DNA of 64,000 nucleotides from positions 75,756 to 139,755 of the forward strand of contig JAKLDG010000001.1 of NCBI GenBank assembly GCA_022703645.1. The letters run 5' to 3'. Below, piece after piece: positions 6,032 through 58,198 of this stretch (position 1 is the stretch's first letter; each line of letters starts with the position of its first letter). This DNA is from Patescibacteria group bacterium (lineage in GTDB: Bacteria; Patescibacteriota; JACPGU01). Both the position numbers and the translations under genes were made by a program. Below the pieces are notes generated by a model that was not told the origin of the DNA, ran no database searches, and was given only the letters and a program-made list of their open reading frames with translations.

Positions 6032-6072
6032 AATATTTGTTCTAAAAGCCATTTTTTGGTAAAATATTTCTC

Positions 6073-7497
6073 ATGAAATACTTTCTTTATATTACAGGTT
6101 GCGATATGAATTATAGCGATGCCGAGCGAATCGCCACGGTTTTTAATGAACACGGATTTTCTTTAGCTTCAAGCGAAGGCGAGTCTGATATTATTGTTGC
6201 TGTCGCTTGTTCGGTTAGAGAAAAAGCGGTACATAAGATTTATGGAAAGGTTGAGAAATGGAGGAAGATCAATAAAACAAGAAATCAAGAAAACAAAAAA
6301 ACAAAAATCATGGTTACGGGGTGTGTCTTACCGCATGATAAGAAGAAGCTGGAGGAGAAGGTTGAACTGGTATTCGAAATTAAAGAAATTGAGAAATTAA
6401 GAAATTTCTTACAAAAAATTTCCAATTTTCAATTTTCAATTTCCAATAAATTTTCAATGACCAATGACCAATATTTAAGTATCAATCCTCAATACCATTC
6501 AAAATACTCTGTTTTCGTACCAATTATGACTGGTTGTGATAATTTTTGTTCATATTGCGCAGTGCCATATACGAGAGGAAGGGAAGTTAGCAGACCGCAA
6601 GAGGAGATCTTGGAAGAAATACGAAGCTTGGTTGAAGCCGGTTACAAAGAAATAACTTTGCTTGGGCAAAATGTGAATAGTTATGGGAAAATTCTCAATT
6701 CCCAATTCTCAATTCTCAATCAAATCTCAAATCACAATGATCAAAATTTGAAAATTGAAACATTGAAGAATTCAATGGAAATTGAAAATTGTAAATTGAA
6801 AATTAATAATCCATTTTTAACCCTTCTCAAACAAATTGACCAATTAGAAGGCAATTACTGGGTTCGATTTTATGCCAATCATCCAAAAGATATGAGCGAT
6901 GAGTTGATAAATTTTTTGGTGCAATCAAAACATTTCTGCCATTATATTCACCTGCCTTTGCAATCTGGAGATGATGAGATTCTGAAGAAAATGAACCGGC
7001 ATTATACTGCTAAACAATACTTAGATCTAGTAAAAAAAATCCGCAAAAAAATTCCGGATGTTGTTTTGACAACGGATATAATTGTTGGATTTCCAGGAGA
7101 AGATGAGAAAGCATTTAACAACACGGTTGATGTTATGAAAAAATCCAAGTTTGATATGGCGTTTATCGCGGAGTATTCCACTCGTTCTGGTACGGTTGCG
7201 AGTAAACTGAATGACGATGTAACGCATGCCGAAAAAGAACGCAGAAAGAAGTATCTTAATGACGAGATCTTGGCAAAAAGTATTTTGGAAAATAACAAAA
7301 AAATGGTTGATAAAAAAGTAAGAATTTTGCTTTCAGGTATAGATAATAAAGGATTTTTGAAAGGAAAAACTGCAGGATTGAAAGATGTAAAAATACCTTT
7401 CGTGAAAACCGAACATACGACCGAAATTGGCGATTTTATCGACGTGGTAATTACGAAAGCTGGAAGTTGGGGTTTGGAAGGAAAGTTTCAAGAATAG
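6073..7497 (+). CDS. miaB: tRNA methylthiotransferase, MiaB family (radical SAM plus TRAM domain), carrying two in-frame repeat insertions
   Basis: UPF0004 N-terminal domain, a CDNFCSYCAVPY radical-SAM CxxxCxxC motif and a C-terminal TRAM domain. Low-complexity inserts ISNFQFSISNKFSMTNDQ and KILNSQFSILNQ...ENCKLKINNP are encoded by the intergenic repeat family. A TGGTAAAAT -10 box lies 7 nt before the ATG. Confidence 0.85.
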   Translation: MKYFLYITGCDMNYSDAERIATVFNEHGFSLASSEGESDIIVAVACSVREKAVHKIYGKVEKWRKINKTRNQENKKTKIMVTGCVLPHDKKKLEEKVELVFEIKEIEKLRNFLQKISNFQFSISNKFSMTNDQYLSINPQYHSKYSVFVPIMTGCDNFCSYCAVPYTRGREVSRPQEEILEEIRSLVEAGYKEITLLGQNVNSYGKILNSQFSILNQISNHNDQNLKIETLKNSMEIENCKLKINNPFLTLLKQIDQLEGNYWVRFYANHPKDMSDELINFLVQSKHFCHYIHLPLQSGDDEILKKMNRHYTAKQYLDLVKKIRKKIPDVVLTTDIIVGFPGEDEKAFNNTVDVMKKSKFDMAFIAEYSTRSGTVASKLNDDVTHAEKERRKKYLNDEILAKSILENNKKMVDKKVRILLSGIDNKGFLKGKTAGLKDVKIPFVKTEHTTEIGDFIDVVITKAGSWGLEGKFQE

Positions 7498-8052: not shown

Positions 8053-8172
8053 ACACTTACCTCCTCAGTTAGAATTTTGTGGCAGTTGTATTGTATGGCA
8101 TATTGGTTATATAGTCAAGGGAAAAGGATGCCTTTATGAAGCAAATTTTAGAGATTGTGGTATAATATTAAT

Positions 8173-9123
8173 ATGGTGGAAAAAGATAACGAAATGCCAA
8201 AAATCATTGTTGTGTGCGGACCGACCGGGAGTGGGAAAACATCCTTGGCTGTACAGCTGTGCAAAAAATTCAATGGAGAAATTATTAATGCGGATAGCCG
8301 GCAAGTTTATCGAGAAATGGATATAGGGACGGGGAAGGGGGAAGTTAAAAGTGAAAAGTTAAAAGTGAAAAGTTTTGGAGTGCCTTCGGCACAATATTTA
8401 GAAGGGGTCAGAATTCATTTAGTAAATATTATTGAACCGAATAATAGGTATACCGTTGGGCAGTTTAAGATTAACGCGGAAGAGGCGATTGCGGATATTA
8501 TTTCGAGAGGAAAAGTTCCATTTATAGTTGGAGGTACGGGGATGTATATTGATGCGTTAGTGGATAATTTTCAATTTTCAAGTTTCAATTTTCAATCAAT
8601 TTCCAATAATCAATTCTCAATCAAAGAAAAAAGCTTAGAAGAATTGGTTAAACTTTTAGAAAAACTAGACCCGCAGGCGTTAAACGTTGTCGATCTGAAA
8701 AACCGCCGCCGTGTTGAACACGCTATTGAAGTTTGTTTGGCTACTGGAATTCCTTTTAGTAAACAGCGAACAAAGGGTGAGAGAAAATATAAAGTATTGA
8801 AATTGGCTCCCTTAGTTTCGCTCGAGCGTGAAAAGTTATATGAAAAAATAAATAAGCGGGTTGATGAGATGATTGAACAGGGGCTGGAAAATGAGGTTAA
8901 ATCGTTAGCAGAAAAATATGGTTGGGAGAGCGAGGCTATGACGGGTATCGGTTACCGTGAATTTCGCGATGAAAGCGATATCGAAAAGGTTAAGGATAAA
9001 ATTAAACAGGACACTCGCAACTATGCCAAGCGGCAAATGACTTGGTTTAAAAGAGATAAAGAAATAGGTTATATAGACCTAAAGAAAGCGGAGATGTTGG
9101 TAAAAGATTTTTTGAAAAAATAA
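8173..9123 (+). CDS. miaA: tRNA dimethylallyltransferase with two in-frame repeat insertions
   Basis: KIIVVCGPTGSGKTS P-loop and QVYREMDIGTGK motif. The start is taken at the ATG at 8173, 6 nt after the extended -10 box TGGTATAAT; the alternative start is the ATG at 8194. Inserted peptides: GEVKSEKLKVKSFGVPSAQYLE and DNFQFSSFNFQSISNNQFS. Confidence 0.8.
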   Translation: MVEKDNEMPKIIVVCGPTGSGKTSLAVQLCKKFNGEIINADSRQVYREMDIGTGKGEVKSEKLKVKSFGVPSAQYLEGVRIHLVNIIEPNNRYTVGQFKINAEEAIADIISRGKVPFIVGGTGMYIDALVDNFQFSSFNFQSISNNQFSIKEKSLEELVKLLEKLDPQALNVVDLKNRRRVEHAIEVCLATGIPFSKQRTKGERKYKVLKLAPLVSLEREKLYEKINKRVDEMIEQGLENEVKSLAEKYGWESEAMTGIGYREFRDESDIEKVKDKIKQDTRNYAKRQMTWFKRDKEIGYIDLKKAEMLVKDFLKK

Positions 9124-9146
9124 TTCATTCATGTTACATTGGGAGT

Positions 9147-10673
9147 ATGTCATTAGCCAAACTTTATTCTGCGACAGTCGTGGGATTGGATGCCGAACCT
9201 ATCGAGGTTGAGGTAGATATTTCTTCTGGAAAAATAATGTTCAATCTCGTGGGGTTGCCGGATAAAGTTGTTGAGGAATCAAAAGAGCGCGTCCGTTCGG
9301 CTGTAAAAAATTCAGACACTACTTTTCCAATGAAGCGCATTACAGTCAATCTTGCTCCGGCCGATATCCGCAAAGAAGGACCGGTTTTTGATCTTGCGAT
9401 TGCAGTTGGGATATTATCCGCGAGCAAACAAGTCGAATTTGATTTTACCAAAACCATCATTCTTGGTGAATTGTCTCTGGATGGAACACTGCGCGCTATT
9501 AAAGGAGTTCTTCCAATTACCGCAATGGCTATCGAGCAAGGATACGAAAAAGTATTTTTGCCTTATGATAATCTCGAAGAAGCGCGGATTTTACCAGGAT
9601 TAGAAATTTACCCTTTGAAAAATCTGAAAGAATTAGTTGATCATTTTAATGGAACAGCATTGGTTATCCCGGTTGTTTCTGGCGGAATATTGGAAAAAGA
9701 AGTTATCGAAGAAAGTAAGTTTGATTTCTCATTCGTGAAAGGTCAGGATCAAGCAAAAAGAGCGCTCGAAATCGTGGCGGCGGGCGGGCACAATATTCTC
9801 ATGAATGGTCCGCCCGGAAGCGGCAAAACACTACTTTCAAGATCACTGCCAACAATTCTACCCGCAATGACGCTGGAAGAAATGCTCGAAGTAACAAAAA
9901 TTCATAGTGTTTCAGGAATATTGCCGGAAGGCGAAGCGCTGGTTCGAACCCGTCCTTTTCGCGCGCCGCATCACACCAGTTCTGCCGTTTCGATAGTTGG
10001 TGGAGGAGCTTTCCCAAAACCAGGCGAAATATCTCTCGCACACCGTGGGATTCTTTTTCTGGACGAATTACCGGAGTTTCCAAGATTTGTCCTGGAAGTC
10101 CTGCGGCAGCCGCTGGAAGACGGTGTGGTGAATGTTTCCAGAGCTAGCGGCGCAGTCTGTTTCCCAGCGAAATTTATCCTTGTAGCTGCGCAAAATCCCT
10201 GTCCTTGCGGGTACTTGACAGATCCAGTAAAGCAATGCACTTGTTCTTCTTCAACCATCGCCAGATATCAGAAGAAGATTTCCGGGCCTCTGCTGGATCG
10301 CATTGATCTGCACATTGAGGTTCCAAGAGTAGAATATTCAAAACTTGCTTCTACTGAATCAGGTGAGGCTTCAGCATCGATCCGAAAACGCGTTGAAGCA
10401 GCGCGTAAAATTCAACAGGAAAGATTCAGGAGCAACAAAAGTAAAATATTTTCCAATAGCGAAATGGGTTCGGACGAGGTAATTAAGTATTGCATTCTTG
10501 ATGAAGGCGCAAAAGCGCTGATCAAAAATGCGGTGAGTCAAATGCATCTTTCTGCGCGCGTTTACCATCGGTTGCTCAAGATTTCCCGAACCATCGCGGA
10601 TCTTGATAGCAGCGATATTATAGAACAAAAACATATTGCAGAAGCATTGCAATATAGAGTGAGAGAGAAATAA
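9147..10673 (+). CDS. comM: YifB/ComM-family Mg-chelatase-like AAA+ ATPase
   Basis: N-terminal Lon-protease-like domain, then an AAA+ core (GPPGSGKT) and the C-terminal ChlI-type domain. Full length, about 508 aa. Confidence 0.85.
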   Translation: MSLAKLYSATVVGLDAEPIEVEVDISSGKIMFNLVGLPDKVVEESKERVRSAVKNSDTTFPMKRITVNLAPADIRKEGPVFDLAIAVGILSASKQVEFDFTKTIILGELSLDGTLRAIKGVLPITAMAIEQGYEKVFLPYDNLEEARILPGLEIYPLKNLKELVDHFNGTALVIPVVSGGILEKEVIEESKFDFSFVKGQDQAKRALEIVAAGGHNILMNGPPGSGKTLLSRSLPTILPAMTLEEMLEVTKIHSVSGILPEGEALVRTRPFRAPHHTSSAVSIVGGGAFPKPGEISLAHRGILFLDELPEFPRFVLEVLRQPLEDGVVNVSRASGAVCFPAKFILVAAQNPCPCGYLTDPVKQCTCSSSTIARYQKKISGPLLDRIDLHIEVPRVEYSKLASTESGEASASIRKRVEAARKIQQERFRSNKSKIFSNSEMGSDEVIKYCILDEGAKALIKNAVSQMHLSARVYHRLLKISRTIADLDSSDIIEQKHIAEALQYRVREK

Positions 10674-11806: not shown

Positions 11807-11831
11807 TTCTGATCACCCGAAAAGGGTTTTA

Positions 11832-11858
11832 AACCGCCTAGTAAAGGCGGTTTTTTAT
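11832..11858 (+). terminator. rho-independent terminator
   Basis: AACCGCC-tagtaaa-GGCGGTT followed by TTTTTATTTT. Confidence 0.8.
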
Positions 11859-11885
11859 TTTACCAAAAAATGATAGAATGAAGTT

Positions 11886-13937
11886 ATGTTTGTAGATATA
11901 GCCGTTAATACAAAAAGCTCAAAGCGTGATGATCTTTTTACCTACTCTATTCCTTCCGAATTAGAGAAAGATATTTTAGTGGGTCAAATGGTGATGATTC
12001 CGTTAGGCTCCAGAAAGGTGAATGGAATTATCATAAAAATTCACGATAAAAAACCTACGTTTAAAACGAAAGATATCGAGAAAATCATCGAACCAATCCC
12101 GATAATTGACGATAAACAAGTTCAATTAGCTTATTTTATCTCAGAGCATTATTGGTGCGGATTTTCTCAAGCGTTGTTTCATATGATACCGGCGAATTTA
12201 CGTAAAAGGAAGACGGCGATTTTTAAGAATTTAGAATCTAAAATAACAAATCTAGGAATGAAAGACAAGATTCTAGCTTCTAGATTCCAGCTTCAATTAA
12301 CTTCCCAACAGCAAAAAGCTCTCAAAAAAATTAACGATGCTTTGAATAGTAAAAAACCCGCAACATTTCTCCTCCACGGTGTTACGAATAGCGGTAAGAC
12401 AGAAGTATATCTACGCGCTTTTGCTCAAGCTTTGGAATCTGGAGGTAGCGGAATTTTTATCGTTCCGGAAATTTCTCTAACCCCGCAAAGCCTGGCAAGA
12501 TTTGAAGAAGTTTTTGGAAAAGACGGTGTTGCGCTAGTGCACAGCCAAATGAGTATTTCCCAAAGGCTAAAAACTTGGATAGAAATAAAAACCGGTAAGA
12601 AAAAAATTGTGGTTGGGTCGCGCAGCGCGGTATTTTCGCCGGTAAAAAACTTAAAAATCATGATTGTCGATGAAGAACATGATCTGATTTCTTTCAAATC
12701 CGATCAAACACCAAGATATGAACTTCACACGGTGGCAGAAAAATTGGCGCAGCTTTCGGGTGCAGTTTTGGTTTTTGGTTCGGGTACGCCACTGGTAACC
12801 AGTTACAAACGCGTGATAGATGGTGAGTGGGAGTATCTTTCAATCTCCGAAAGGGTTGATGGTTCACTTCCACCTCAAATCAAAGTTGTAAATATGGAAG
12901 AGGAAAAGCCAAATGGTGGAGACGGGATATTCAGCGAGTATTTCATCAAGGCTCTTGATATGGTGCTCAAAAATGGCAAACAGGCACTGTTATTCTTAAA
13001 TAGACGCGGAATGGCATCATTTATAATTTGTAATGATTGCAAGAAGATTTCGATGTGCGAGCAGTGCGATTCAGCACTCGTATTTCATTCCATAGATAAT
13101 AAAATGTGGTGCCATCATTGCGGGAGAAAATATCTGCCGCCAACCAGATGCGAAATTTGTGGAGGATTAGATTTTCGATTTCTTGGAAAAGGTACGGAAA
13201 AAATCGAGGAAGAAATCAAAAAGTATTTTCCAGATACCAGAATTGCGCGCATGGATCGCGATACAATGATTGATGATCGAGCTTATGATGAAATTTTTGA
13301 AAAATATAAAAAAGGCGAAATAGATATTCTTGTCGGGACTCAGATGATCGTGCACGGCTGGGATATTCCATCGGTAGATCTGGCGGCTGTTATTTCAATT
13401 GATGAATCACTTCTTATACCCGATTATACTTCAGAGGAAAAGGTTTATGAGCTGGTTACTCAGCTGGCTGGACGTACTGGTAGAAGTAGCGCCAGGGGGC
13501 TTTTAGTTCTGCAGACCGCTACGCCTGATATTTGGATATTTGACACGATCCAGAAAGGCGACTATCTATCTTTTGTTAAAAGGGAACTTCTGACCCGGGA
13601 AAAATTCGGTTATCCGCCATTTGGTCAGCTGATTAAATTGTCAATGTCCGGTTTTGACCGAACTGTGATTGAAAAAAAAGCGATAGAATTATTTGGAAAG
13701 TTGCAGGAAATTAAAAATAAATTAGGAGAAATTAAGGTAGAAATTATCGGGCCGATTAGCCCCTTAGTTGAACGTAAATACGGGAGATACTGGAAAAACA
13801 TAATCATAAAAACAAAAAATCAATCCCCCTTCACTAAAGTTACGGAGGACAGGGAAAACAAAAAATTAATTGAGGGATTATTGAACATGGTACCGAAAGA
13901 ATGGGTTATTGATGTAGATCCGATATCATTATTATAG
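11886..13937 (+). CDS. priA: primosomal protein N' (replication restart helicase PriA)
   Basis: N-terminal 3'-DNA-binding domain, Walker A GVTNSGKT, a DEEH box (IVDEEHD), Cys4/Cys4 zinc fingers (CNDCKK...CEQC...CHHCG...CEICG) and a helicase C-terminal domain. TGATAGAAT lies 6 nt before the ATG. Confidence 0.9.
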   Translation: MFVDIAVNTKSSKRDDLFTYSIPSELEKDILVGQMVMIPLGSRKVNGIIIKIHDKKPTFKTKDIEKIIEPIPIIDDKQVQLAYFISEHYWCGFSQALFHMIPANLRKRKTAIFKNLESKITNLGMKDKILASRFQLQLTSQQQKALKKINDALNSKKPATFLLHGVTNSGKTEVYLRAFAQALESGGSGIFIVPEISLTPQSLARFEEVFGKDGVALVHSQMSISQRLKTWIEIKTGKKKIVVGSRSAVFSPVKNLKIMIVDEEHDLISFKSDQTPRYELHTVAEKLAQLSGAVLVFGSGTPLVTSYKRVIDGEWEYLSISERVDGSLPPQIKVVNMEEEKPNGGDGIFSEYFIKALDMVLKNGKQALLFLNRRGMASFIICNDCKKISMCEQCDSALVFHSIDNKMWCHHCGRKYLPPTRCEICGGLDFRFLGKGTEKIEEEIKKYFPDTRIARMDRDTMIDDRAYDEIFEKYKKGEIDILVGTQMIVHGWDIPSVDLAAVISIDESLLIPDYTSEEKVYELVTQLAGRTGRSSARGLLVLQTATPDIWIFDTIQKGDYLSFVKRELLTREKFGYPPFGQLIKLSMSGFDRTVIEKKAIELFGKLQEIKNKLGEIKVEIIGPISPLVERKYGRYWKNIIIKTKNQSPFTKVTEDRENKKLIEGLLNMVPKEWVIDVDPISLL

Positions 13938-13963
13938 GGGCAGGTTTGAAACCTGCGCCCCTA
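13936..13963. repeat. GC-rich hairpin repeat GGGGCAGGTTTGAAACCTGCGCCCC, overlapping the priA stop codon
   Basis: The same hairpin sequence recurs at 42291..42319 inside a coding region. Confidence 0.7.
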
Positions 13964-13967
13964 CCTA

Positions 13968-13995: not shown

Positions 13996-14002
13996 CTAAT
14001 TA

Positions 14003-14494: not shown

Positions 14495-14576
14495 CCCGGC
14501 CTTTTATGTTATAATATCAGGGAATAATTAAACAATAAAGCAAGAAATCAAAAAAAACAATAAATCAATATATTTC

Positions 14577-18275: not shown

Positions 18276-18304
18276 AAAATCCCTACACAAGTAGGGATTT
18301 TTAA
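18276..18304 (+). terminator. rho-independent terminator
   Basis: AAAAATCCCTAC-acaa-GTAGGGATTTTT. Confidence 0.8.
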
Positions 18305-18358
18305 TTTGTAATAAAAAAATCCCATTTTGATTTTGTGTTTTTAGTATATAATAAAATC

Positions 18359-18946
18359 ATGATAGCAAGTATAAGAGGTCAGGTAACATTAATCAAAGAA
18401 ACATATATAGTTGTCGAGACAGGTGGGATCGGCTACAAAGTTTTTGTTGCCGGTTCAGTGCTAACCGCGAGCCGTCTTGGCGAAGAAGTGTCGCTAAATA
18501 TTTACCACAATATTACCGAGAGTTCGCAAGCACTTTACGGTTTCCATACCACTGATGAGCAGGAATTTTTTGAAATGCTCTTAACCATAAATGGTATTGG
18601 ACCAAAAGTAGCAATTAGCGTCTTGAATGCTGCATCTCTGAACGATATTCGCGAGGCGGTGATATCAAATAACCCTGAAATTCTCACAAATATTTCCGGA
18701 ATTGGCAAAAAGACTGCCGAGAGGATAGTGTTGGAACTGAAAAATAAAATCACGATCGGTGATGTTCGCCCTATTGGTACGAAATCCATTGATGTCGGTT
18801 CGCATGCAAATATGGATGTCTATGAAGCTCTGATAAAACTCGGTTATAATGCAGTAGAAGCCAGAACGGCTCTGAAGATGGTTGATCAATCTATAAAAGA
18901 ACCGGAAAAGAAGCTTAAAGCAGCGTTGAAGAGTCTGGGGAGATAA
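18359..18946 (+). CDS. ruvA: Holliday junction DNA helicase RuvA
   Basis: OB-fold N-terminus (MIASIRGQVT) and two helix-hairpin-helix motifs (INGIGPKVA, ISGIGKKTAERI). The start is taken at the ATG at 18359, 6 nt after a TATATAAT -10 box; the longer ORF begins with GTG. Confidence 0.85.
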   Translation: MIASIRGQVTLIKETYIVVETGGIGYKVFVAGSVLTASRLGEEVSLNIYHNITESSQALYGFHTTDEQEFFEMLLTINGIGPKVAISVLNAASLNDIREAVISNNPEILTNISGIGKKTAERIVLELKNKITIGDVRPIGTKSIDVGSHANMDVYEALIKLGYNAVEARTALKMVDQSIKEPEKKLKAALKSLGR

Positions 18947-21571: not shown

Positions 21572-21762
21572 GATATTAATAAAATACAAAAAAATGCTAA
21601 AAAAATTGCTGAATTTTTTGAAAAAACTTTTTAACTTCCAAGCTAGTTCATATAAAGGAAATCTGAAGGATAGACCAACTGATTTTATTGATGATTAATT
21701 GAAAAATGAAGTATTGTTAAAACTGTCTTTTTGAGGCGGTTTTTTTGTGCTATAATTTTCCT

Positions 21763-22944
21763 ATGGTAAATATACAAAACCCAGTTAGTTCAACCTGGAT
21801 TTTTGCTGTTATCTTTGGGATAGCGCTGATTTTTTCTATACGGCGCGACAAGCTGAGGGATTTTTTTCCTATTTCGACCACCGAAGAGTTGAAGGGGTTG
21901 GCAATTCTTACGGTTATATTTGGCCATATTGGGTACTTTCTTGTCTCAGACCAGAGGTTTCTCTATCCATTGTCAATTGCTTCCGGTGTCGGGGTTGATC
22001 TTTTTCTTTTTCTCTCGGGATTCGGATTAACAGTCAGTACACTAAAGAAAAGTACTTCTATTGCGAAATTCTACCTTAAAAGATTACCAAGATTATTTGT
22101 TCCTTTTTGGATCGTCTTGACACTGCTCTTTCTAATCGATTTTTTCTTTTTAAAGGTTTCCTATCCTTGGGATTATATAGTAAGATCTTTTTTTGGAATT
22201 TTTACCAGGGCAAACATCTATATAGATATCAATTCACCGCTGTGGTATTTCACGGTTATTTTGTTCTATTATCTGGTTTATCCAATGGTTTTTTCGAAAA
22301 AGGCACCTTGGGTTTCCGCGCTTGTTATTTACCTTATAACATATTTGGTAGTGTTCCAGATTAATCCTTCGGTGATTTCACAGGTAAAAAACCTTTATCA
22401 AGTACACCTTCTTGCCTTCCCTCTTGGAATTGTCGCGGGATGGGGTTACTACAAAAGGGGTGCGATCAACGACTGGATGGCAAATTTGGTTGATCAGTAC
22501 AAAGCAAAAAATAAGAAGTTTTTCAATTTAGCAGCGAAAATGGCAAGGATTTCTTCAGTCAGAAATCTAAAAAAGAACCTATTTATTTCTTTCCGCTATT
22601 TTATTATGGCTCTAATGATTGTTGCAATATTATATACTTCGGTAAATTCTGGTGTTGGCAACCTTGATATTGTCGGCTATATCAGTATGGTAACAGTGTT
22701 AGTAGTTTTTGCGCTATTTGTTTTAAAGAAAATCGATTTTAAACTGCTTAGCCTTTTAGGTGTTTACAGCTATGAAATATACTTATTACACTGGCCAATA
22801 CTCCTAAGATTCAATGGTCTCTATAAATGTTTCCCGGCATGGTTAGCAACAGTTCTTTACCTTTTGATATTCTTGAGCCTTGCATGGGTTTTGCATAAAA
22901 TTACAGAAAAAATCTTAAGAAGAAAACTAGTAAAGTTAAAATAA
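21763..22944 (+). CDS. acyltransferase family 3 (OafA-like) integral membrane protein
   Basis: About 10 transmembrane helices with an LKGLAILTVIFGHIGYF motif. The start is at the ATG 6 nt after a TGTGCTATAAT -10 box. Confidence 0.7.
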   Translation: MVNIQNPVSSTWIFAVIFGIALIFSIRRDKLRDFFPISTTEELKGLAILTVIFGHIGYFLVSDQRFLYPLSIASGVGVDLFLFLSGFGLTVSTLKKSTSIAKFYLKRLPRLFVPFWIVLTLLFLIDFFFLKVSYPWDYIVRSFFGIFTRANIYIDINSPLWYFTVILFYYLVYPMVFSKKAPWVSALVIYLITYLVVFQINPSVISQVKNLYQVHLLAFPLGIVAGWGYYKRGAINDWMANLVDQYKAKNKKFFNLAAKMARISSVRNLKKNLFISFRYFIMALMIVAILYTSVNSGVGNLDIVGYISMVTVLVVFALFVLKKIDFKLLSLLGVYSYEIYLLHWPILLRFNGLYKCFPAWLATVLYLLIFLSLAWVLHKITEKILRRKLVKLK

Positions 22945-23081
22945 GTTTATGGTTTCTATATTTAATTTGGCAAAAATAATTTCAAATTAGGCGATTTTTG
23001 TTTTGATAAAATATTATAGTCCCTCGGACTTACTCGGGACATTTTTATTCTTATGTAGTATAATTGTATTAAGGAGTAAAA

Positions 23082-27822: not shown

Positions 27823-28755
27823 TTAATTATAATTTGATAAATCATGGATCACTTTATTCCAGTCCTTCGTTTGCAATCTTTTCCAATTATTAACATGAAA
27901 TTTTAAAAGATGGTCATTAAATATAACCGAAAATGGGTTTCCCAATTTTTCCTGTTTTTTTGCAATCATTTTCGTCTGCAAGTACCTAAAAAAGTTCTCA
28001 AAGATTTTTGGTTGGAAAAGCAGCGAAAGGGCATTCCTTACGGATTTTGCCAAAAGAGGCTGTCTGAAATTGATAAAATAATCGGTGATGAAATGGCTTG
28101 AATTTGGCAGATACTTTTTTATCCATTCATTTTCTTTTTTATATTTTTGAAAAGTCTTATCATAGTCTAGAATCGGCGCGTTTTCGGCAATCCAGAAGGG
28201 CAGGAAAAACTCTCTATCTTTTGGTGCCAAGTAATCGATATTCATCTCACTTTCTGATAAGTACATACTTAGGCATACTCTCTTGGCAACTTTTCTGCCC
28301 TGTCTTTTTAATCTGAAAATCCAAAGCAGTGTGCTTGAAAGAAGTTTTACAGTCCAAATCTTATCTTTTTGCGTAATGATTAAAAAATCAATATCACTAT
28401 CTTTATCACAATTAAATCGTGCCAGGGAATTATTTACAATAACTGATTTAATAAAAGGCAGATAAGATAAAATCCGCGCGGCACGAATAGCCCTATTCCA
28501 AAGCTTTTCCGAAATATCGTATCTTTTCTGGCGGATATCAAGATAGTGGCTCTTCCCTGGTAAAAAATAAAAACCATTTTTTTCTTCTATTTCTCCACGT
28601 CTAATCAATTCATCCAACCTCAAGATCACATGATCGATGGTCGCTTGGTAGCAAAAAAGATAGCGCCAGACTTCAAAAAAAGTTGGCGGGTGTTGGTAGG
28701 TATCAAAATAGTGTACCGTGAAAAGGATTGCTTGATCAATATTCGTGACTTTCAT
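27823..28755 (-). CDS. hypothetical protein with a nucleotidyltransferase-like motif
   Basis: DKDSDIDFLII resembles the GS-x(n)-[DE]-x-[DE] pattern of the Pol-beta-type nucleotidyltransferase fold. Otherwise unrecognised. Confidence 0.35.
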   Translation of the reverse strand: MKVTNIDQAILFTVHYFDTYQHPPTFFEVWRYLFCYQATIDHVILRLDELIRRGEIEEKNGFYFLPGKSHYLDIRQKRYDISEKLWNRAIRAARILSYLPFIKSVIVNNSLARFNCDKDSDIDFLIITQKDKIWTVKLLSSTLLWIFRLKRQGRKVAKRVCLSMYLSESEMNIDYLAPKDREFFLPFWIAENAPILDYDKTFQKYKKENEWIKKYLPNSSHFITDYFINFRQPLLAKSVRNALSLLFQPKIFENFFRYLQTKMIAKKQEKLGNPFSVIFNDHLLKFHVNNWKRLQTKDWNKVIHDLSNYN

Positions 28756-28860
28756 ACTGGTATTATAGCAAAAAAAGGCTTAAAGTGCGAGTAGTTTTAA
28801 AAAATATTGGTATTGCCGCAAAAACATAGTATACTTTAATAAAATCAGTAACTATTTTTT

Positions 28861-33047: not shown

Positions 33048-33407
33048 TTATTTTATCTTTAGTATCTTATTGATCTTTTTTGTAATTTCGGAAAGGTTTG
33101 TTGCTGATTTTATGAAATAATCTATTGCGCCAAGCTTTGTTGCCCGAGCTTTATCTTCATCTTGAGATAGGTTTGTTAGCACAATAACCGGCACTTTAGT
33201 TTTTAATTTTTCTAAGAATTCAAAGCCGTTCATTTTCGGCATCAGCAGGTCGAGGAGTATTAAGTCCGGTTTCGCTTTCTTACAAACTTCTATCCCTACA
33301 GCTCCGTTTTCCGCTGAAAAAACTTGAAAACCAGCAGAGAGTAACTCCATATTAAGAGCTTTCATTAATATTTGGTCGTCTTCGACGACAAGTATTTTTT
33401 TATTCAT
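33048..33407 (-). CDS. single-domain response regulator (CheY-like receiver)
   Basis: Receiver domain with the Asp pocket (VVEDD, LLDLLMP, K near the C-terminus). The start is at the ATG 6 nt after TGTTATAAT. Confidence 0.8.
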   Translation of the reverse strand: MNKKILVVEDDQILMKALNMELLSAGFQVFSAENGAVGIEVCKKAKPDLILLDLLMPKMNGFEFLEKLKTKVPVIVLTNLSQDEDKARATKLGAIDYFIKSATNLSEITKKINKILKIK

Positions 33408-33448
33408 GTTTTTATTATAACAAATCAAATGATTTTGGAAAGATATGT

Positions 33449-34598: not shown

Positions 34599-35030
34599 TT
34601 AAAAAATGGTTATTTTTCTCTTATTTTCGTCTAACGATTCAAAACATAAATCAATCTTTTTCTCGGGTAGAATTTCGGAAATTTTATCAGCCCATTCGAT
34701 AGCGATAATATTATGTGGGTCTGACCAGATTTCTTCAACTCCCAAGTCCAAAGCTTGTTCGGGTTCGGTTAAGCGGTAAACATCTAAGTGATAAAAATTC
34801 TTGATTCTTGATTTTTTATTCATGATTCTATACTGTTTCATCAAAACGAATGTTGGGCTGGTTACGTTTTCTTTAACTCCTAATGCCTTTGCCAAAGCTT
34901 GGATAAAGGTCGTTTTTCCCGTTCCCAGGTTTCCATAGAGACACAAAATCTCACCGCCTTTCAATTTTTTGGCAAAATCGGAGGCGATTTTTTGTGTTTG
35001 CTTGCGAGATTTAGAGGTAAATTTTTGCAT
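34599..35030 (-). CDS. tsaE: tRNA threonylcarbamoyladenosine biosynthesis ATPase TsaE
   Basis: P-loop GNLGTGKTT and the SPTF motif. TGATAGAAT lies 6 nt before the ATG. Confidence 0.85.
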   Translation of the reverse strand: MQKFTSKSRKQTQKIASDFAKKLKGGEILCLYGNLGTGKTTFIQALAKALGVKENVTSPTFVLMKQYRIMNKKSRIKNFYHLDVYRLTEPEQALDLGVEEIWSDPHNIIAIEWADKISEILPEKKIDLCFESLDENKRKITIF

Positions 35031-35055
35031 GAGAATATTCTATCACAAAAAAGAC

Positions 35056-37856: not shown

Positions 37857-38750
37857 CTATGGTTGTAATATATCTTCGGTTCTTCCACCTATTGAAATAA
37901 CAACATTTTTTACGGTTCCGAACTGTTTGAGCGTCTCAGTAATCTGAGCGCGGATAGCTGAAACTTTACATGAACCGCCGACACCAGCTTGCAGCATATC
38001 ATCGAAATCAGCAGTTGCGGTATAGTTTTTTATCGTTACACTATTTAGTTTAACCCCAGTATTTATTGAGGAATAAAATCCGTTCTTGGCTTCATCTTTT
38101 GTTGGGCCTTTTAGCAGTTCTTGCAATGCCACATTTGCAGTATCTTTTGCCCAGCCGACTCTGCGAGTGGTTTCAAAAACTTTATTGCAATTCATTGTAT
38201 TCGGGTCTTTGATAGAATTGCTAAAATATACTTTTATATACATAGACTGCACATAACCGAATTTGACCGGAATAGTAACTTTATCTATTTCAGAACCATC
38301 TTTCGCGGAATACTGAAAAACTTCTAAAATTCCATCGGATCCTTTTGGTTGAGGGTAATTCATCTCTTTATTAAATAAATTAAATTCTCCAGCATCTCCC
38401 GGCAAAGTCATTCCAGATTCTTCTGCGAGAATATTCCCGCCTTTTTCTTTCAATCTTACTATATATGTCGATTCAAATACCCGCGCTTCTCCTAATATTT
38501 TCAAAGGCAGCCCAATAGTCTCGCCTTTTTTTGGTGAGAAAATATGGATATTTGTTGAACTATTATCACTTGTTATGGTCTTGTCCACTGTCGATAAATC
38601 CTGCGTGCTCTCCTTTGTTTGTTCTTGAGTAGTTGTTTGCGCGGCATCTTTTTTGGTAACCGCAGAAAAATAACCCATATAAGCTACAATAGCAAGAAGA
38701 CAGATGACGAGGATGATGATTAAGATGGCTTCAAGGTTGGTTTTCTTCAT
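37857..38750 (-). CDS. GerMN-domain protein (Ig-like domain plus GerMN, membrane-anchored)
   Basis: The C-terminus VALQELLKGPT...GGSCKVSAIRAQITETLKQF is the GerMN signature. There is an N-terminal transmembrane helix. Confidence 0.65.
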   Translation of the reverse strand: MKKTNLEAILIIILVICLLAIVAYMGYFSAVTKKDAAQTTTQEQTKESTQDLSTVDKTITSDNSSTNIHIFSPKKGETIGLPLKILGEARVFESTYIVRLKEKGGNILAEESGMTLPGDAGEFNLFNKEMNYPQPKGSDGILEVFQYSAKDGSEIDKVTIPVKFGYVQSMYIKVYFSNSIKDPNTMNCNKVFETTRRVGWAKDTANVALQELLKGPTKDEAKNGFYSSINTGVKLNSVTIKNYTATADFDDMLQAGVGGSCKVSAIRAQITETLKQFGTVKNVVISIGGRTEDILQP

Positions 38751-38786
38751 AAGTTTATTATAGCAGAAATATTGTTTATTACTAAT

Positions 38787-38902: not shown

Positions 38903-39388
38903 TTATTTATTTATTACAAAAAAGACAAAAAGGAAAACGAATATTACGGCTAAAACTAATGTTGCAACCATACCCACAATTGACCCAATCAATCCACCCG
39001 TGGCAGCTTTGGCCGCCCTTTCTTTGTTTCCATGATTGAGAATCTCAGCGACCAAAATTCCAAGGAATACTCCCACAAGTCCGCCGAAAGGAGGAAGCAG
39101 AAGCGTTCCGATGATCATACCGATGATTCCAAAAAACATCGATTTCTGCGCTGCTCCTCCATACTTGGCTCCAAGCATTCCAGTTAGGTAATCATTAAGC
39201 ATAGATATTAGGGCGATGCCTGCTAAAACTCCCAATTCCCATGGTTGTAATCTTTCAAACTTATCAATAAACCCATAAATAAGGGAAATTATAAACATAT
39301 AAAGCAGCCCTGGGATAGGAAGAAATATACCAGCAAAACCAGGTAGGAGAAGAATGACAAAACCAATAAATATAATCATTTGGCTCAT
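38903..39388 (-). CDS. DUF456-family membrane protein
   Basis: Four-transmembrane protein with the PGFAGIFLPIPG and GGLVG motifs typical of DUF456. Confidence 0.6.
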   Translation of the reverse strand: MSQMIIFIGFVILLLPGFAGIFLPIPGLLYMFIISLIYGFIDKFERLQPWELGVLAGIALISMLNDYLTGMLGAKYGGAAQKSMFFGIIGMIIGTLLLPPFGGLVGVFLGILVAEILNHGNKERAAKAATGGLIGSIVGMVATLVLAVIFVFLFVFFVINK

Positions 39389-39416
39389 GGTTTCATTTTA
39401 GACCACAATCTTTTAT

Positions 39417-40368: not shown

Positions 40369-41469
40369 TTAGATTCCCGAAAAAGCAATCGTAACGGTCA
40401 TGTTTGATTCTTTGAAATTATCGTATTTTTGTCCAACGTAGAATATTGTATTGAATGTAATATTGTTTCCGGATTTTGCAATATTGGAAATCTCAAGCCT
40501 ATTATATTCGCTTCTTGCTCCAGAGTAGCTACCGGTAGTTCTTTTTGTTTTTGAATCCCAAATGGCAGTGTAATTCGTATAGTTCGTTTTCAGATTAATA
40601 TTTACCGCCAGACGACTCTTACTTAGCAAACTACTTGGTATTGGCGCGGTGTGGCTGACAATCTTTGTGCTACTTAATCCAGTACAATTATTTTTTGTCA
40701 AGAATGCTAAGCCAGTATTATCTGTTGGGCAGGCGCCTCCTTTTCCTGATACCGGTTTTAATTCGTATGTACAAGTAATGGTATTGCCACTTGATTTACA
40801 TACAGAGCTTGCACTCGATCCAGGAGTGGTTATGGTCCCAGCGTTAGGCGCTATTATAACACCATTATTAGTAGTATTTGTTGTAGGGGCGATAATTGAA
40901 CCCTCGCTTTTCTGGTTAGTGCTTACGCTGGCGCAGGTGCTTGGAGGCACGGGTCCATAGATAGTTTTTTGTGTTCTATTTCCGTTAAAATATCCTTGCG
41001 TAGGTTTATTCCAACTTTTTATCCATGTCCAGTCATTATAATAGGTTTTTGTTTCGCCCCATTTCTTTTTATAATATACGCGGGCTGAAGCACCTGTTAC
41101 ATTACCTTTTTTATCAGTTGTTTTCATAACAGTGATAGCTTTCATATAAAATGAATATGGCCCTTCACCATAGCTAGTATATGTTGAGCCGCTCATTGTG
41201 GCTGTCGGGCTGGCCATAGGGTAGTATTTCTTGAGTTCATTTGTGACGTCACAATTCGTGATAGAGGCAAGAGGATCTGAATTGTTTTTAACTGTGAAGG
41301 GAATTGTCTTATTCGTTGTCGCCTGAGTTTTAATTTTTGCTTGCGCCGCAGGAGTTAGTTTGATCGTTGCTGCTGCATAAGATAGTCCCGCAATACCAAG
41401 TATAGCTGCGCCAACCAAAATAGTGGTTTTTGTCGTTACTTTCGTTTGTAATTTTTGTTTTTTTGACAT
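40369..41469 (-). CDS. secreted Thr/Ser/Asn-rich hypothetical protein
   Basis: Signal/anchor at the N-terminus, low-complexity and Cys-containing. No recognised domain. Confidence 0.45.
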   Translation of the reverse strand: MSKKQKLQTKVTTKTTILVGAAILGIAGLSYAAATIKLTPAAQAKIKTQATTNKTIPFTVKNNSDPLASITNCDVTNELKKYYPMASPTATMSGSTYTSYGEGPYSFYMKAITVMKTTDKKGNVTGASARVYYKKKWGETKTYYNDWTWIKSWNKPTQGYFNGNRTQKTIYGPVPPSTCASVSTNQKSEGSIIAPTTNTTNNGVIIAPNAGTITTPGSSASSVCKSSGNTITCTYELKPVSGKGGACPTDNTGLAFLTKNNCTGLSSTKIVSHTAPIPSSLLSKSRLAVNINLKTNYTNYTAIWDSKTKRTTGSYSGARSEYNRLEISNIAKSGNNITFNTIFYVGQKYDNFKESNMTVTIAFSGI

Positions 41470-41601
41470 GCCAAAATATTAATAATATTAACAGGTATTT
41501 CCTGCTTACGATCATTGTATATTCTGTGTGAGTTTAGTCAAGAGGTAAAAACAATTAAACAAAAAAGAAAAAAACAAGAAAACAAGAATTCAGAAAAAAG
41601 A

Positions 41602-42049: not shown

Positions 42050-43762
42050 TTAATTAATTGTCTTAACCATATATGTATCTTCAAGTTTATATCCGATTTT
42101 TTTATAATATTCACGCGCTCCAACTCCGGAAATTACAGCGATTTTTTTATAACCCGCTTTCCTCGCTATTTGTTCAGCTTGGACAATTAAATTCTTACCA
42201 AGTCCCTTATGCTGCTTCGCGTCTTCTCCGATTTGTCCAACGTCGAGAGCCTGACCATATGTATGGACTTCACGAATGATAGCGGTTTCTGTAGGGGCAG
42301 GTTTGAAACCTGCCCCTACGGGTAGGCGTAACCGTAATAATGCATATAAATGAGAATGATTATCAATAAGTTCAAGGAATACTTCTTCACCGCCGGAGGC
42401 ATTGTATTCGATCTTATTTAATTTGGGCGTATACAATACGCCCCTACGAGATATTTTTGTTTTGTTGATTTCTTGTTCATTTGTTTCTTTGTCCTTGATT
42501 TCACGGCAACGGATACACTGGCACTGCCAACCCTCTTTTTGCGAATGATTATCAATAAGCTGTCTTAGATTTGTGGTTTTATTCCCTGCGATGATACTCT
42601 CTTCTGGAATATCGCGGATGAGGCGGCTGATGCGAACATATGGCGGAATGATCTTTTTTATATCACAAATTAGCTTTAGAAGTTGTTTATCTGTGTAGGC
42701 TTTATATTTTTTTTCTTTCCAGAGTTTATACAGATCAGAATCTTTGACAACAACGCAGGGATAAATTTTCAACTGATCCGGCTGGAAGTCTTGGCTAGAA
42801 AACAGGTCTTTAAACATTTGTAGGTCTTTCTTCAGATTTGAACCATAGAGTCCCGGCATCATATGATAGGAAACTTTAAATCCAAAGTCCTTCATAAGTT
42901 TGGTAGCGCGGATAGTTTCAGATACATCGTGTCCTCTGCGGTTCTTTTTCAACACTTCATTGTAGATACTCTGAACACCAATCTCGATACGGGTTGCGCC
43001 CATATCACGAAATTTCACAAGTTCTTTTTCAGTAATCAGATCAGGACGAGTTTCGAGAGTGAGACCGATAACTCGAGATTTGGTGGATTCATTTTTTGAT
43101 TGTTCAATCTGTAGCTGTCGTTTTAGTTCAACTAAATTCAACTTGCTATCTTGATATCTTGTTATCTTGTTTTTTTTCTTCTTTTGATAATTGATCATTG
43201 GGAATTGATTGAAAATTGAAAATTGAAAATTGTTGCAAGCCCTATAACATTCTTTCACAAACCAATATTGGTATTTAGTAGGCAGAGCATTAAAACTTCC
43301 TCCCATGATAATCAACTCAATCTTGTCCGTGGAGTGCCCGGATTTTTCGAGCGCAGTGAGACGAATTTCAATTTGGCGATAAGGATCAAAATCTGCGAGA
43401 ATAGCGCGCATCACAGCAGGCTCATTGGACAAATAAGATTTAGGCATATTCTTTTCGGTTGGACAATATAAACAATTTCCCGGGCAACCGTATTCCTTAG
43501 TCAGCACGGAAACAACGGCTACTCCCGAAAGGGTGCGCATTTTTGCTTTTCGCAATAATCTTTCAATATCTGAGTTTTTCTTAACCTTTTTCTTTTTCAG
43601 TAATTCTTCATAAACCTGAGTTAGCCCGTAGTTTGGCAGAGAATCTATCTTAAACTGCGTACTAATCTCGTTTTTCAGTATCATAAAATCGCGCAGCTTT
43701 GTTATTCCCCGTTCGCAAGCGCGAATAATCAGTTCTTGTTTTGCATTATTTATACTCTGCAT
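42050..43762 (-). CDS. Elp3-like radical-SAM plus GNAT protein (tRNA wobble-uridine modification family), with in-frame repeat insertions
   Basis: CPGNCLYCP radical-SAM cluster motif and a C-terminal GNAT domain (QHKGLGKNLIVQAEQIARKAGYKKIAV). The insert NNFQFSIFNQFP derives from the 7-mer repeat. The insert VGAGFKPAPT is encoded by the GC hairpin at 42291..42319. Confidence 0.75.
   Translation of the reverse strand: MQSINNAKQELIIRACERGITKLRDFMILKNEISTQFKIDSLPNYGLTQVYEELLKKKKVKKNSDIERLLRKAKMRTLSGVAVVSVLTKEYGCPGNCLYCPTEKNMPKSYLSNEPAVMRAILADFDPYRQIEIRLTALEKSGHSTDKIELIIMGGSFNALPTKYQYWFVKECYRACNNFQFSIFNQFPMINYQKKKKNKITRYQDSKLNLVELKRQLQIEQSKNESTKSRVIGLTLETRPDLITEKELVKFRDMGATRIEIGVQSIYNEVLKKNRRGHDVSETIRATKLMKDFGFKVSYHMMPGLYGSNLKKDLQMFKDLFSSQDFQPDQLKIYPCVVVKDSDLYKLWKEKKYKAYTDKQLLKLICDIKKIIPPYVRISRLIRDIPEESIIAGNKTTNLRQLIDNHSQKEGWQCQCIRCREIKDKETNEQEINKTKISRRGVLYTPKLNKIEYNASGGEEVFLELIDNHSHLYALLRLRLPVGAGFKPAPTETAIIREVHTYGQALDVGQIGEDAKQHKGLGKNLIVQAEQIARKAGYKKIAVISGVGAREYYKKIGYKLEDTYMVKTIN
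42291..42319. repeat. GC-rich hairpin GTAGGGGCAGGTTTGAAACCTGCCCCTAC located in-frame inside the Elp3-like CDS
   Basis: Perfect 13-bp stem. The same sequence occurs after priA at 13936..13963. Confidence 0.75.
43195..43243. repeat. 7-mer repeat segment (AATTGAAAATTGAAAATTGAAAATTG) in-frame in the Elp3-like CDS
   Basis: Its orientation matches the gene strand, so it is read as NFQFSIFNQF. Confidence 0.7.
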
Positions 43763-43841
43763 ACTTCTTATTTTACCACTTTCTCTTGCAAAAACCAGTA
43801 GTTAAAGTAAAATTAAGGAAATATTAGTAATAATTATATAT

Positions 43842-46970: not shown

Positions 46971-47146
46971 AAGTTTTAATTTACTTATAAATATATTAAA
47001 TTACTTACGTTTATTCTATCATAAAATAAAAAATAGTTGTAAATGGTTTATTATAAAAAAATCAGCTGCCATTCTTCTCTTCCGGTTTAAGTTCGGTGCA
47101 CCAGAGAATTTCGCAAAGAAAATTCTTTTTTGGTATAATGAGAGTT

Positions 47147-47869
47147 ATGGAAAATATTAAAGACGATATTCGAAAAGGATACGATATTATTTCAAGAAGT
47201 TTCTGTCATACCAGAAACTATCTTTGGCGTGAGATGGAGCCGATTCGGGATTTAGTTACTGAAGGCGAAGTGCTGGATCTTGGATGTGGAAATGGGAGGC
47301 TTTATGAACTCTTTGCTAATAATCCGAAAATTCAATACACGGGAGTTGATTTCAGCGAAAAATTAATCGAATTTGCAAGATCGCGCTATGTTACAAAAGA
47401 CTTTGAGAGCAAAAGAAAAGACTTACCAGAGCAGAAAGGTCCGACGCCAAAGTTTATCATCGCAGATATTACAGAATTTGAAATTAAGCCGAAGACCTAT
47501 AATCTGATTGCGCTAATAGCTTCATATCATCATATCCCTGATAGGAAAGAGCGCTTGGAATTATTAAAAAAAGTTCATGATGGTTTGAAAGAAAACGGAA
47601 CGGCTATTATTACCATCTGGAATCTATGGAATAGCAAAACGATTCTAAAAGTTTTAGATTCCTGGAAAAGAAAAATATTGAGGCAAGAGAGAGGTGGGAT
47701 GTTTGATATTTTCTATCCTTTCAATGATAATGGCACGATTGTTTACCGCTATTATCGGATGTTTAGCAGGCGAGCTATTCGAAAAGAATTAAAAAAGTAT
47801 TTCATTATTACGAAAGAGGAGAAATGGAAGAAGGGGCAGAACCTGCCATTTTATTTAAAAGCCAAGTAA
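47147..47869 (+). CDS. class I SAM-dependent methyltransferase
   Basis: VLDLGCGNGR motif I. The start is at the ATG 7 nt after TGGTATAAT; the longer ORF begins at 47096. Confidence 0.7.
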   Translation: MENIKDDIRKGYDIISRSFCHTRNYLWREMEPIRDLVTEGEVLDLGCGNGRLYELFANNPKIQYTGVDFSEKLIEFARSRYVTKDFESKRKDLPEQKGPTPKFIIADITEFEIKPKTYNLIALIASYHHIPDRKERLELLKKVHDGLKENGTAIITIWNLWNSKTILKVLDSWKRKILRQERGGMFDIFYPFNDNGTIVYRYYRMFSRRAIRKELKKYFIITKEEKWKKGQNLPFYLKAK

Positions 47870-49538: not shown

Positions 49539-49600
49539 TTATAATATAAAGGTTATAAAATGGGGTGCAAAAATCCCATTTTTTTGATAGAATGGTATTT

Positions 49601-57625: not shown

Positions 57626-58054
57626 TTATCCGGTTGAACCAAATCCTCCTCTATTTTTATCATCCATTTTCTCTACTTGAATCAGTCCCACTTTTTCTAC
57701 CGGTAAGAACATTCCCTGCGCGATGCGTTCGCCTTTTTCTATTCTTACGATCTCATCAGTAAAATTATAAGCACAAAACAGCACCTCATCACTTTCTCCG
57801 CAATAGTCCTGATCGATAACGCCAATGTGATTTCCTTGAAATAATCCTTTTTTCTTTGCCAGAGAGCTGCGCGGAGAAATAAGAAAAACATAACCTTCCG
57901 GAGTTTTAACAATAATATTAAGAGGTACGAGCACGATTGACTTTGGCGCTACTTCAATATCGATTCTTGAATACAAATCAAAAGCTACAGAGCCAGCCGT
58001 TTGATAGGCAGGCAAGGGGAGGGAAGGGTCAATCAATTTAATTTGAACATTCAT
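57626..58054 (-). CDS. dut: dUTP diphosphatase
   Basis: GSVAFDL, RSSLA, GVIDQDYCGE and RGGFGSTG motifs. The start is chosen at MNVQIKL, 6 nt after a TATACT -10 box; the alternative ATG is 6 nt upstream at 58060. Confidence 0.8.
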   Translation of the reverse strand: MNVQIKLIDPSLPLPAYQTAGSVAFDLYSRIDIEVAPKSIVLVPLNIIVKTPEGYVFLISPRSSLAKKKGLFQGNHIGVIDQDYCGESDEVLFCAYNFTDEIVRIEKGERIAQGMFLPVEKVGLIQVEKMDDKNRGGFGSTG

Positions 58055-58198
58055 ACGCATAGTATAACTTGGAGAGACATAATATTCAAGGCATAAAAAA
58101 TGAAAATGTCTAATGTCTAATTTCTAAACAATTTCAAAAATAATTTCCAAATGTTTTTTTATGTTATAATATTTGTGCGACATAAATAATCCCAATCT

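Follow-up and report, generated by a model that had tools for sequence, protein, structure and literature searches.

Extended -10 boxes six or seven nucleotides before start codons in a Patescibacteria genome and their possible role in leaderless initiation

What is a promoter-like box doing immediately in front of a start codon? The question is raised by priA, in a 64,000-nucleotide stretch of DNA from a Patescibacteria group bacterium (assembly GCA_022703645.1, contig JAKLDG010000001.1, positions 75,756 to 139,755 of the forward strand), which as a whole we will refer to as the window. At the priA site (11871..11888, plus strand) the letters aaaa lead into the extended -10 box TGATAGAAT (11871-11879), which is separated by six nucleotides, gaagtt (11880-11885), from the ATG at 11886-11888. 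The initial annotation of this DNA had listed ten genes with such an arrangement and proposed that their mRNAs are leaderless. On rereading the sequence we found every one of the ten with the box, spacing and ATG coordinate claimed for it, and together with four newly found sites they make up a strong set of 14, beside a weak set of about five. The start-adjacent box is confirmed as real and far above chance, and its best explanation, which the sequence makes probable, is that -35-independent extended -10 promoters yield leaderless mRNAs.

A box at a fixed distance from start codons

The initial annotation had called for a count of the motif against shuffled controls, which we ran across the window. 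The motif TGNTANAAT-N6-7-ATG, in which a TGnTAnAAT box is followed after six or seven nucleotides by ATG, was observed 11 times against 0.62 ± 0.77 expected, with a maximum of 3, in 300 dinucleotide-preserving shuffles (about 18-fold), and the looser TGNTANNNT-N6-7-ATG 17 times against 5.1. Spacings were read from a table of 60 gene starts, compiled from public gene calls on the same DNA (DAOTEO010000001.1 of GCA_035454225.1, approximately 351-415 kb, and the JGI metagenomes 3300009776 and 3300025715, which represent the same population) and from first-ATG open reading frame (ORF) calls for four genes in uncovered stretches. Relative to these starts TGnTAnAAT lies at a spacing of 6 in seven cases and of 7 in four, and at no other value within 0-25, and of the 1,784 other ATGs in the window not one has it 6-7 nucleotides upstream, nor does any of the 209 intergenic ATGs that are not starts (Fisher 2e-17). 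A low-GC control, 404 kb of loci from outside the Candidate Phyla Radiation (CPR) with GC below 45%, contains 278 TGnTAnAAT boxes, one of which lies 6-7 nucleotides before the ATG of an ORF of at least 100 amino acids. The density of box-ATG pairs per 100 kb is 17.2 in the window, 7.8 in relatives and 0.2 in the low-GC controls.

The relatives are six contigs, L147-L152, found through PriA homologues (PriA 52-68% identical), from which 132 publicly called starts were pooled; a search of metagenome contigs with priA added one close relative, L082. Among named organisms the most similar PriA proteins come from a 'candidate division CPR3 bacterium' (68% identity) and a 'Candidatus Microgenomates bacterium' (52%). 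Among the 132 starts TAnAAT occurs 15 times at a spacing of 6 and 0-1 times at neighbouring spacings (Fisher 1e-16), and TGnTAnnnT has 12 matches at a spacing of 6. There is a -10-like box 6-8 nucleotides upstream of priA in five relatives, at exactly 6 in L147, L150 and L151, and the comM box at 6 nucleotides is kept in L147, L149, L150 and L152, that is in four of the five relatives with a comM locus. Box carriers vary, with def and uvrC carrying it in some relatives, miaA only here and comM in most; this partly different choice of genes between genomes argues for a clade-wide mode with gene-by-gene turnover. These sequence comparisons indicate that the arrangement has been conserved within a clade of Patescibacteria with affinities to CPR3 and Microgenomates.

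Could the pattern have arisen by chance or from the base composition of an AT-rich genome, or could it reflect nothing more than miscalled starts? The genome has about 38% GC (range 35-42%), and across the window the loose form TAnnnT-N6-7-ATG by itself shows no enrichment (85 occurrences against 94.5 expected in shuffles), as such an explanation would have it. It is nevertheless effectively refuted by the enrichment of the specific motif, its restriction to gene starts, its conservation in relatives and its absence from the low-GC controls, and by the N-terminal conservation and profile ends that back the starts themselves, as described below.

The strong sites vary little in their boxes. The priA box TGATAGAAT recurs at lepA (49585..49603, plus strand; 7 nucleotides, ATG 49601) and tsaE (35028..35045, minus strand; 6 nucleotides, ATG 35030). 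The box TGGTAAAAT precedes miaB (6057..6075, plus; 7 nucleotides, ATG 6073) and a newly found radical-SAM gene (43760..43778, minus; 7 nucleotides, ATG 43762), while TGGTATAAT precedes miaA (8158..8175, plus; 6 nucleotides, ATG 8173, the longest-ORF start being TTG 8155) and a methyltransferase gene (47131..47149, plus; 7 nucleotides, ATG 47147). The box TGCTATAAT is found at an Acyl_transf_3 gene (21748..21765, plus; 6 nucleotides, ATG 21763) and at two further new sites, those of a Germane/Gmad2 gene (38748..38765, minus; 6 nucleotides, ATG 38750) and of hyp310, a hypothetical gene of 310 amino acids (28753..28770, minus; 6 nucleotides, ATG 28755), and TGTTATAAT at a response regulator gene (33405..33422, minus; 6 nucleotides, ATG 33407). 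Two sites lack the TG, namely ruvA, with gtaTATAAT (18344..18361, plus; 6 nucleotides, ATG 18359), and the fourth new site, that of a DUF456 gene, with gtcTAAAAT (39386..39403, minus; 6 nucleotides, ATG 39388). The weakest of the strong sites is that of comM/yifB (9132..9149, plus), where TGTTACATT, with a TACATT hexamer, is followed by 6 nucleotides (gggagt) and the ATG at 9147, 23 nucleotides past miaA. Weak candidates are dut (58052..58069, minus), with agtTATACT, 6 nucleotides and ATG 58054 or alternatively ATG 58060; a hypothetical gene of 366 amino acids (41467..41484, minus), with tatTAATAT, 6 nucleotides and ATG 41469; and further sites at 53791 (plus), 46970 (minus) and rpsR 20662 (plus). 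All genes with a start-adjacent box here begin with ATG. NCBIfam and Pfam back the identities of MiaB, MiaA, YifB/ComM, PriA and RuvA, as well as those of LepA, TsaE, the receiver-domain response regulator, the methyltransferase and the Acyl_transf_3 protein.

The motif had also been put forward as a better guide to true start codons than longest-ORF calls, which are indeed too long at ruvA, lepA, miaA and the response regulator and methyltransferase genes. The public calls give 316 amino acids for miaA, 613 for lepA, 240 for the methyltransferase, 195 for RuvA and 119 for the response regulator; the profiles of RuvA, YifB and the response regulator match from their position 1 at residue 1 of the protein, and position 2 of the LepA profile falls on residue 3. 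Conservation of the PriA N-terminus, MF-x-x-IA-x-NTKSS, begins at residue 1 in six of the seven relatives, the closest ones, and that of the ComM N-terminus, M(S/A)LAK(L/I)YS, likewise at residue 1 in all five relatives having comM, and the DNA upstream of both genes diverges among relatives, the box excepted. For the Acyl_transf_3 gene the public calls are 393 amino acids in JGI and 399 in Logan. As a start predictor the motif thus holds up for ruvA, lepA, miaA, the response regulator and the methyltransferase, on public calls and NCBIfam profile ends, while at dut, proposed as a possible further example, the public calls disagree (142 or 144 amino acids) and the start stays ambiguous. As judged from these sequence data, the ATGs next to the boxes are shown to be the true N-termini, with dut excepted.

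Promoter anatomy and the leaderless reading

Aligning the strong sites by their hexamers gives further insight into what the box may be. All 14 have T-12, A-11 and T-7, nearly all have A at -9 and -8, and 12 have TG at -15/-14, the two without it being those of ruvA and DUF456. Positions -16 to -21 are T-rich, with a run of 5-8 T directly 5' of the TG, and the working consensus of the aligned sites is TTTTTT-TGn-TA(T/A/G)AAT. The alignment yields no -35 consensus, merely three or four of the sites having at least four of six -35 matches, and scans of the window with generic -35/-10 consensus sequences give no excess over shuffles, so that the signal is confined to the extended -10 box.

The bases around the start codon are equally constrained. 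The base at -1 is a pyrimidine at all 15 window sites and, with the relatives included, at 37 of 39 box-adjacent starts, against 95 of 141 other starts (p=4e-4); with the A at +1 and the T at +2 it would make up a Y-R-Y 'start element'. In E. coli libraries such an element sets the transcription start site (TSS) when it is centred 7 or 8 bp past the -10 hexamer, with co-localisation of 93% and 79% (PMC12641261). A 6-nucleotide spacer puts the A of the ATG at position 7 and a 7-nucleotide spacer at position 8, which is the sigma-70 distance from -10 to TSS, and the two spacings seen here coincide with the two E. coli start-element positions. As to the SD (Shine-Dalgarno) site, which the initial annotation had found missing at its listed genes, a core (GGAG, GAGG or AGGA at -18 to -4) is present at none of the 39 box-adjacent starts and at 45 of the 141 others, in the window and relatives taken together.

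The most likely mechanism is that RNA polymerase holoenzyme would use sigma regions 3.0 and 2.4 to read the extended -10 box, without requiring a -35 element, and would initiate on the A of the ATG, 7 or 8 bp past the hexamer and with a pyrimidine before it. The transcript would then begin with 5'-AUG, having neither a 5' untranslated region nor an SD site, and by analogy with other bacteria we infer that its translation would follow the leaderless pathway, with the 5'-terminal AUG bound by a 70S ribosome or by a 30S subunit together with initiation factor 2 (IF2) and fMet-tRNA. All the indirect tests (spacing, start element, lack of SD sites, distal boxes and start codons) favour this leaderless reading as the initial annotation had proposed it, with the TSS itself placed by inference.

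The distal boxes referred to here are a second class. The window holds 43 TGnTAnAAT boxes in total, and those that are intergenic fall into two classes, 11 at 6-7 nucleotides and about nine at 26-170 nucleotides from starts. The latter precede tlyA, hyp585, def, rpsF, PIG-L, xerC and a glycosyltransferase gene, some of which are clearly SD-led. At tlyA, which serves as a comparator, TGATAAAAT (23004..23012, plus) lies 69 nucleotides 5' of an SD-led start (SD AAGGAG), as a leadered promoter; the other distal boxes are at 2029 (plus), 14507 (plus), 17215 (minus), 18982 (plus), 47021 (minus), 53862 (minus) and 58162 (plus). The occurrence of the identical box far 5' of other genes, some of them SD-led, argues for a promoter element and not a ribosome site. 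A further extended -10 box, TGGTAAAAT (11857..11865, minus), stands divergent and back to back with the priA box, and within 11857-11879 the two, TGGTAAAAT and TGATAGAAT, have a 5-bp A/T tract in common.

This bears on a different reading of the box, in which TAnAAT would lie in the leader of the mRNA and act there as an A/U-rich, non-SD translation element, either of the 'group B' type of Bacteroidota or an S1-dependent enhancer. Many SD-less genes here do have A/T-rich upstream regions, and CPR ribosomes are unusual, with a short bS1 and in some cases no anti-SD sequence (PMC9297842). However, beyond the distal boxes, what is conserved is a signature specific to sigma-70 (TG at -15/-14 and the invariant T-12, A-11 and T-7) and not a general A/U richness, and hairpin-plus-T-run terminators stand directly before the box in four cases. 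Moreover, the group-B motif precedes all genes, operon-internal ones included (PMC6028130), whereas the start-adjacent box is missing from tightly coupled internal genes (gaps of at most 8 nucleotides, or overlaps); tsaB, HIT and lgt have an SD instead, and HK, hyp116, DUF1653 and hyp298 have neither signal. We therefore consider a translation element very improbable.

The four terminator-like structures lie upstream of priA, ruvA, lepA and the Acyl_transf_3 gene. The hairpin 5' of the priA promoter (11831..11859, plus) consists of AAACCGCC-tagta-GGCGGTTT and a T-run (fold dG -17.1, z -4.6), with an equivalent hairpin and T-run in the relatives L149 and L150; that 5' of the ruvA promoter (18294..18323, plus) consists of GGGATTTTT...AAAAATCCC with a T-rich tail (dG -9.0). 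A hairpin after murJ (49558..49584, plus), aaatggggt/atcccattt with a T-run (dG -12.5, z -2.8), abuts the lepA -10 box, and a weak hairpin with T-run (21719-21743) precedes the Acyl_transf_3 box. In all four cases the T-run of the terminator also forms the T-tract of the box, and with hairpin and T-run immediately 5' of these boxes transcripts from upstream should stop before them. A terminator-promoter fusion as a general rule was rejected, as 10 of the 14 sites have no convincing hairpin.

Several observations weigh against the leaderless reading. The TSS is placed from promoter geometry and the Y-1 A+1 T+2 element alone. The comM site combines a poor -10 box with a GGGAG that ends 1 nucleotide ahead of the ATG, and the priA box in L082 and L149 is at 8 nucleotides, which would give a leader of 1-2 nucleotides and not zero. 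The arrangement does recur outside the window, where the 28 genes in 20 kb of sequence flanking it add two clear new cases (DUF134, TGCTATAAT-7-ATG, and an amidase gene, where a hairpin and T-run precede TGCTATTAT-6-ATG) and one at 8 nucleotides, but the frequency there is about 10% against about 23% in the window. Some of the public starts may have been called by gene finders with such motifs in their models, a mild circularity that is countered by the finding that in 8 of the 11 TGnTAnAAT cases the ATG used is the first ATG of the ORF. Finally, a terminator-like hairpin is present upstream of just 4 of the 14 strong sites, and the comM, tsaE and DUF456 sites are situated 23-28 nucleotides past a same-strand gene, so that leadered read-through transcripts could coexist there with leaderless ones.

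These last two points also favour an alternative in which the promoters are real and their leaderless transcripts only a minor product, the main expression coming from upstream leadered or polycistronic mRNAs and the box serving as a secondary internal promoter. This is plausible for the three sites close behind a same-strand gene, and the existence of SD-less leadered genes means that initiation without an SD is possible on leadered mRNAs. However, six of the 14 strong sites are divergent from the upstream neighbour and so have no same-strand gene upstream, four have a terminator directly 5', and the exact conserved spacing and the base at -1 would not be selected if the position of the 5' end were irrelevant. 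As a general explanation the alternative is unlikely. Of the 14 sites, 11 in all are divergent from, or more than 40 nucleotides past, the upstream gene.

The initial annotation had also concluded that two initiation modes coexist. Box-adjacent and SD-led genes do occur side by side, but the description is incomplete: of the 60 starts, 14-19 are box-adjacent and about 17 have an SD core, and the rest, about half, have neither signal. Among the latter are thrS (4241), fmt (15095), rpsP (17371), efp (20958), trpS (28861) and murJ (47940), the upstream regions of which are merely A/T-rich. A class of this size implies a third, SD-independent mode of leadered initiation.

Taking the window and the relatives together, we lean, if only somewhat, towards a broader proposal: that leaderless initiation from extended -10 promoters lacking a -35 element is a major conserved mode in the CPR3/Microgenomates-like clade, serving about 10-25% of genes, core replication, repair and translation genes included, with some of the promoters fused to the T-tail of a preceding terminator. 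Such a mode would be undescribed for the superphylum, and there may be a connection with the reduced ribosome of this group, which has a short bS1 and lacks some proteins.

Phylogenetic reach and genomic surroundings

The feature was not seen at the lepA loci of a Parcubacterium, a Peregrinibacterium and a 'Saccharibacteria' metagenome-assembled genome, lepA being leadered in the Parcubacteria and Peregrinibacteria. A scan of genome contigs with lepA brought up distant taxa for the most part; its best LepA match, L002, carries a Saccharibacteria label (73% identity), and the pattern is not clear at that locus. The ideas that the trait is CPR-wide, or that the host is a Saccharibacterium, were dropped, the lepA loci of those lineages being without a clear feature.

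Other loci in the relatives and just beyond the window are of interest in their own right. In three relatives a GC-rich hairpin and T-run end approximately 3-15 nucleotides before the ATG of trmD (L149 13750-13800, L151 13760-13807, L152 16030-16078), so near to it that there is no space for a normal promoter or leader. L151 also carries, at 20026-21466, a bAvd and reverse-transcriptase pair resembling a diversity-generating retroelement, with -10-like boxes 6 nucleotides before both ATGs. A gene for a YchF-type GTPase lies at L143 15492-16565, about 5.4-6.5 kb past the 3' end of the window; E. coli YchF modulates translation of leaderless mRNA (cited in PMC12641178), and we mention the gene as context and not as evidence.

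The region upstream of priA contains three small ORFs of 33, 47 and 28 amino acids (11418-11519, 11545-11688 and approximately 11720-11806, plus strand), each with a consensus SD of the GGAGG type. They occupy a 795-nucleotide stretch that is empty in the public annotation and end at the terminator (11831-11853) before the priA promoter, and the relatives likewise have small SD-led ORFs 5' of priA. Downstream of priA a 639-nucleotide gene-free gap (13938-14576) separates it from def. Within the gap lie a promoter close to consensus, TTGACT-16-TATAAT (13968-13995), and a strong, GC-rich hairpin of 11 bp (14456-14480). It could hold an unannotated small RNA or small ORF, with no significant Rfam match within it. 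Scans of the whole window with Rfam (gathering thresholds) and ARAGORN returned no tRNA, tmRNA or Rfam family, and on the strength of these a riboswitch or leader RNA as the cause of the sites was ruled out.

Palindromic, AT-rich elements that form one family and are about 100-130 nucleotides long also occur between genes of the window (19815-19940, 23814-23928, 27395-27512, 37730-37856, 38785-38902 and 57520-57625). They are made of heptamer arrays, (TYYCAAT)n ... (ATTGRRA)n, that form long imperfect hairpins (dG -23 to -33 kcal/mol), and they lie mostly right after stop codons, with the appearance of miniature inverted-repeat transposable elements (MITE) or repetitive extragenic palindromic (REP) sequences. 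The same arrays are found in frame within miaB (6417-6465, 6690-6804), miaA (8566-8624) and the radical-SAM gene (43184-43232), where they give rise to low-complexity insertions of the 'NFQFSISN' type in MiaB and MiaA; the ORFs remain open and the NCBIfam matches are split around the insertions.

Comparison with known systems

The mechanism proposed here is known from other bacteria and is not new, while for this lineage it has apparently not yet been described. Our literature search found no paper tying leaderless mRNAs to CPR, Patescibacteria or Saccharibacteria, the GeneMarkS-2 species assignments lying outside that search. A survey of CPR ribosomes reports a short bS1 and partial anti-SD loss in Parcubacteria and does not discuss leaderless initiation (PMC9297842); a preprint on the TM7x transcriptome has no TSS or promoter analysis, and for one Saccharibacterium TSSs have been indirectly inferred only (PMC12641261). 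If the leaderless reading is true, substantial leaderless expression, so far mainly found in Actinobacteria, Deinococcus-Thermus and archaea, reaches a large bacterial radiation with reduced ribosomes, and how CPR bacteria initiate translation becomes directly testable from 5' ends in existing anaerobic-digester samples. In practical terms, the arrangement offers a simple start-codon annotation rule for these genomes, and a native promoter compact enough to span about 20 bp (T-tract, TGnTAnAAT, N6, ATG) that could be used in emerging Patescibacteria genetic systems.

The nearest counterpart is 'group C' of GeneMarkS-2, in which first-in-operon genes have a Pribnow box 6-8 nucleotides from the start and SD-led genes occur beside them; the group is common among Actinobacteria (90%) and Deinococcus-Thermus (97%) but seldom found in other lineages, with Mycobacterium tuberculosis, M. 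smegmatis, Streptomyces, Corynebacterium and Deinococcus deserti as examples (PMC6028130, citing Cortes 2013 and de Groot 2014). The likeness extends to the -10 box 6-8 nucleotides before the start, the lack of an SD, the coexisting SD-led genes, the sharpening of start calls by the motif and the share of units affected (about 20-40%). The differences are that the host belongs to CPR3/Microgenomates-like Patescibacteria of 35-45% GC and not to the high-GC Actinobacteria or to Deinococcus, that the box is mostly an extended -10 (TGn) after a T-tract with no evident -35, and that a third and large class of genes shows neither signal; the leaderless starts here are, moreover, predictions from sequence. 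Unlike mycobacteria, which also use GTG, all the starts concerned here are ATG.

In its anatomy the box resembles the extended -10 promoters (TRTG, the '-16 region') known from E. coli and from Gram-positive bacteria, with TG one base 5' of the hexamer and a weak or absent -35, and probably also in the choice of a TSS 7-8 bp downstream at Y-R-Y (PMC12641261). It departs from them in that +1 is placed on the start codon and in the run of 5-8 T directly before the TG.

A third comparison is with the classical leaderless mRNAs of the E. coli system, lambda cI from PRM and Tn1721 tetR, which have a 5'-terminal AUG and no SD and depend on 70S ribosomes and IF2 for initiation. Those are isolated cases in an SD-dominated genome, whereas the arrangement described here would represent a genome-wide mode conserved across a clade, with the housekeeping genes priA, lepA, ruvA, miaA, miaB and tsaE among those that it serves.

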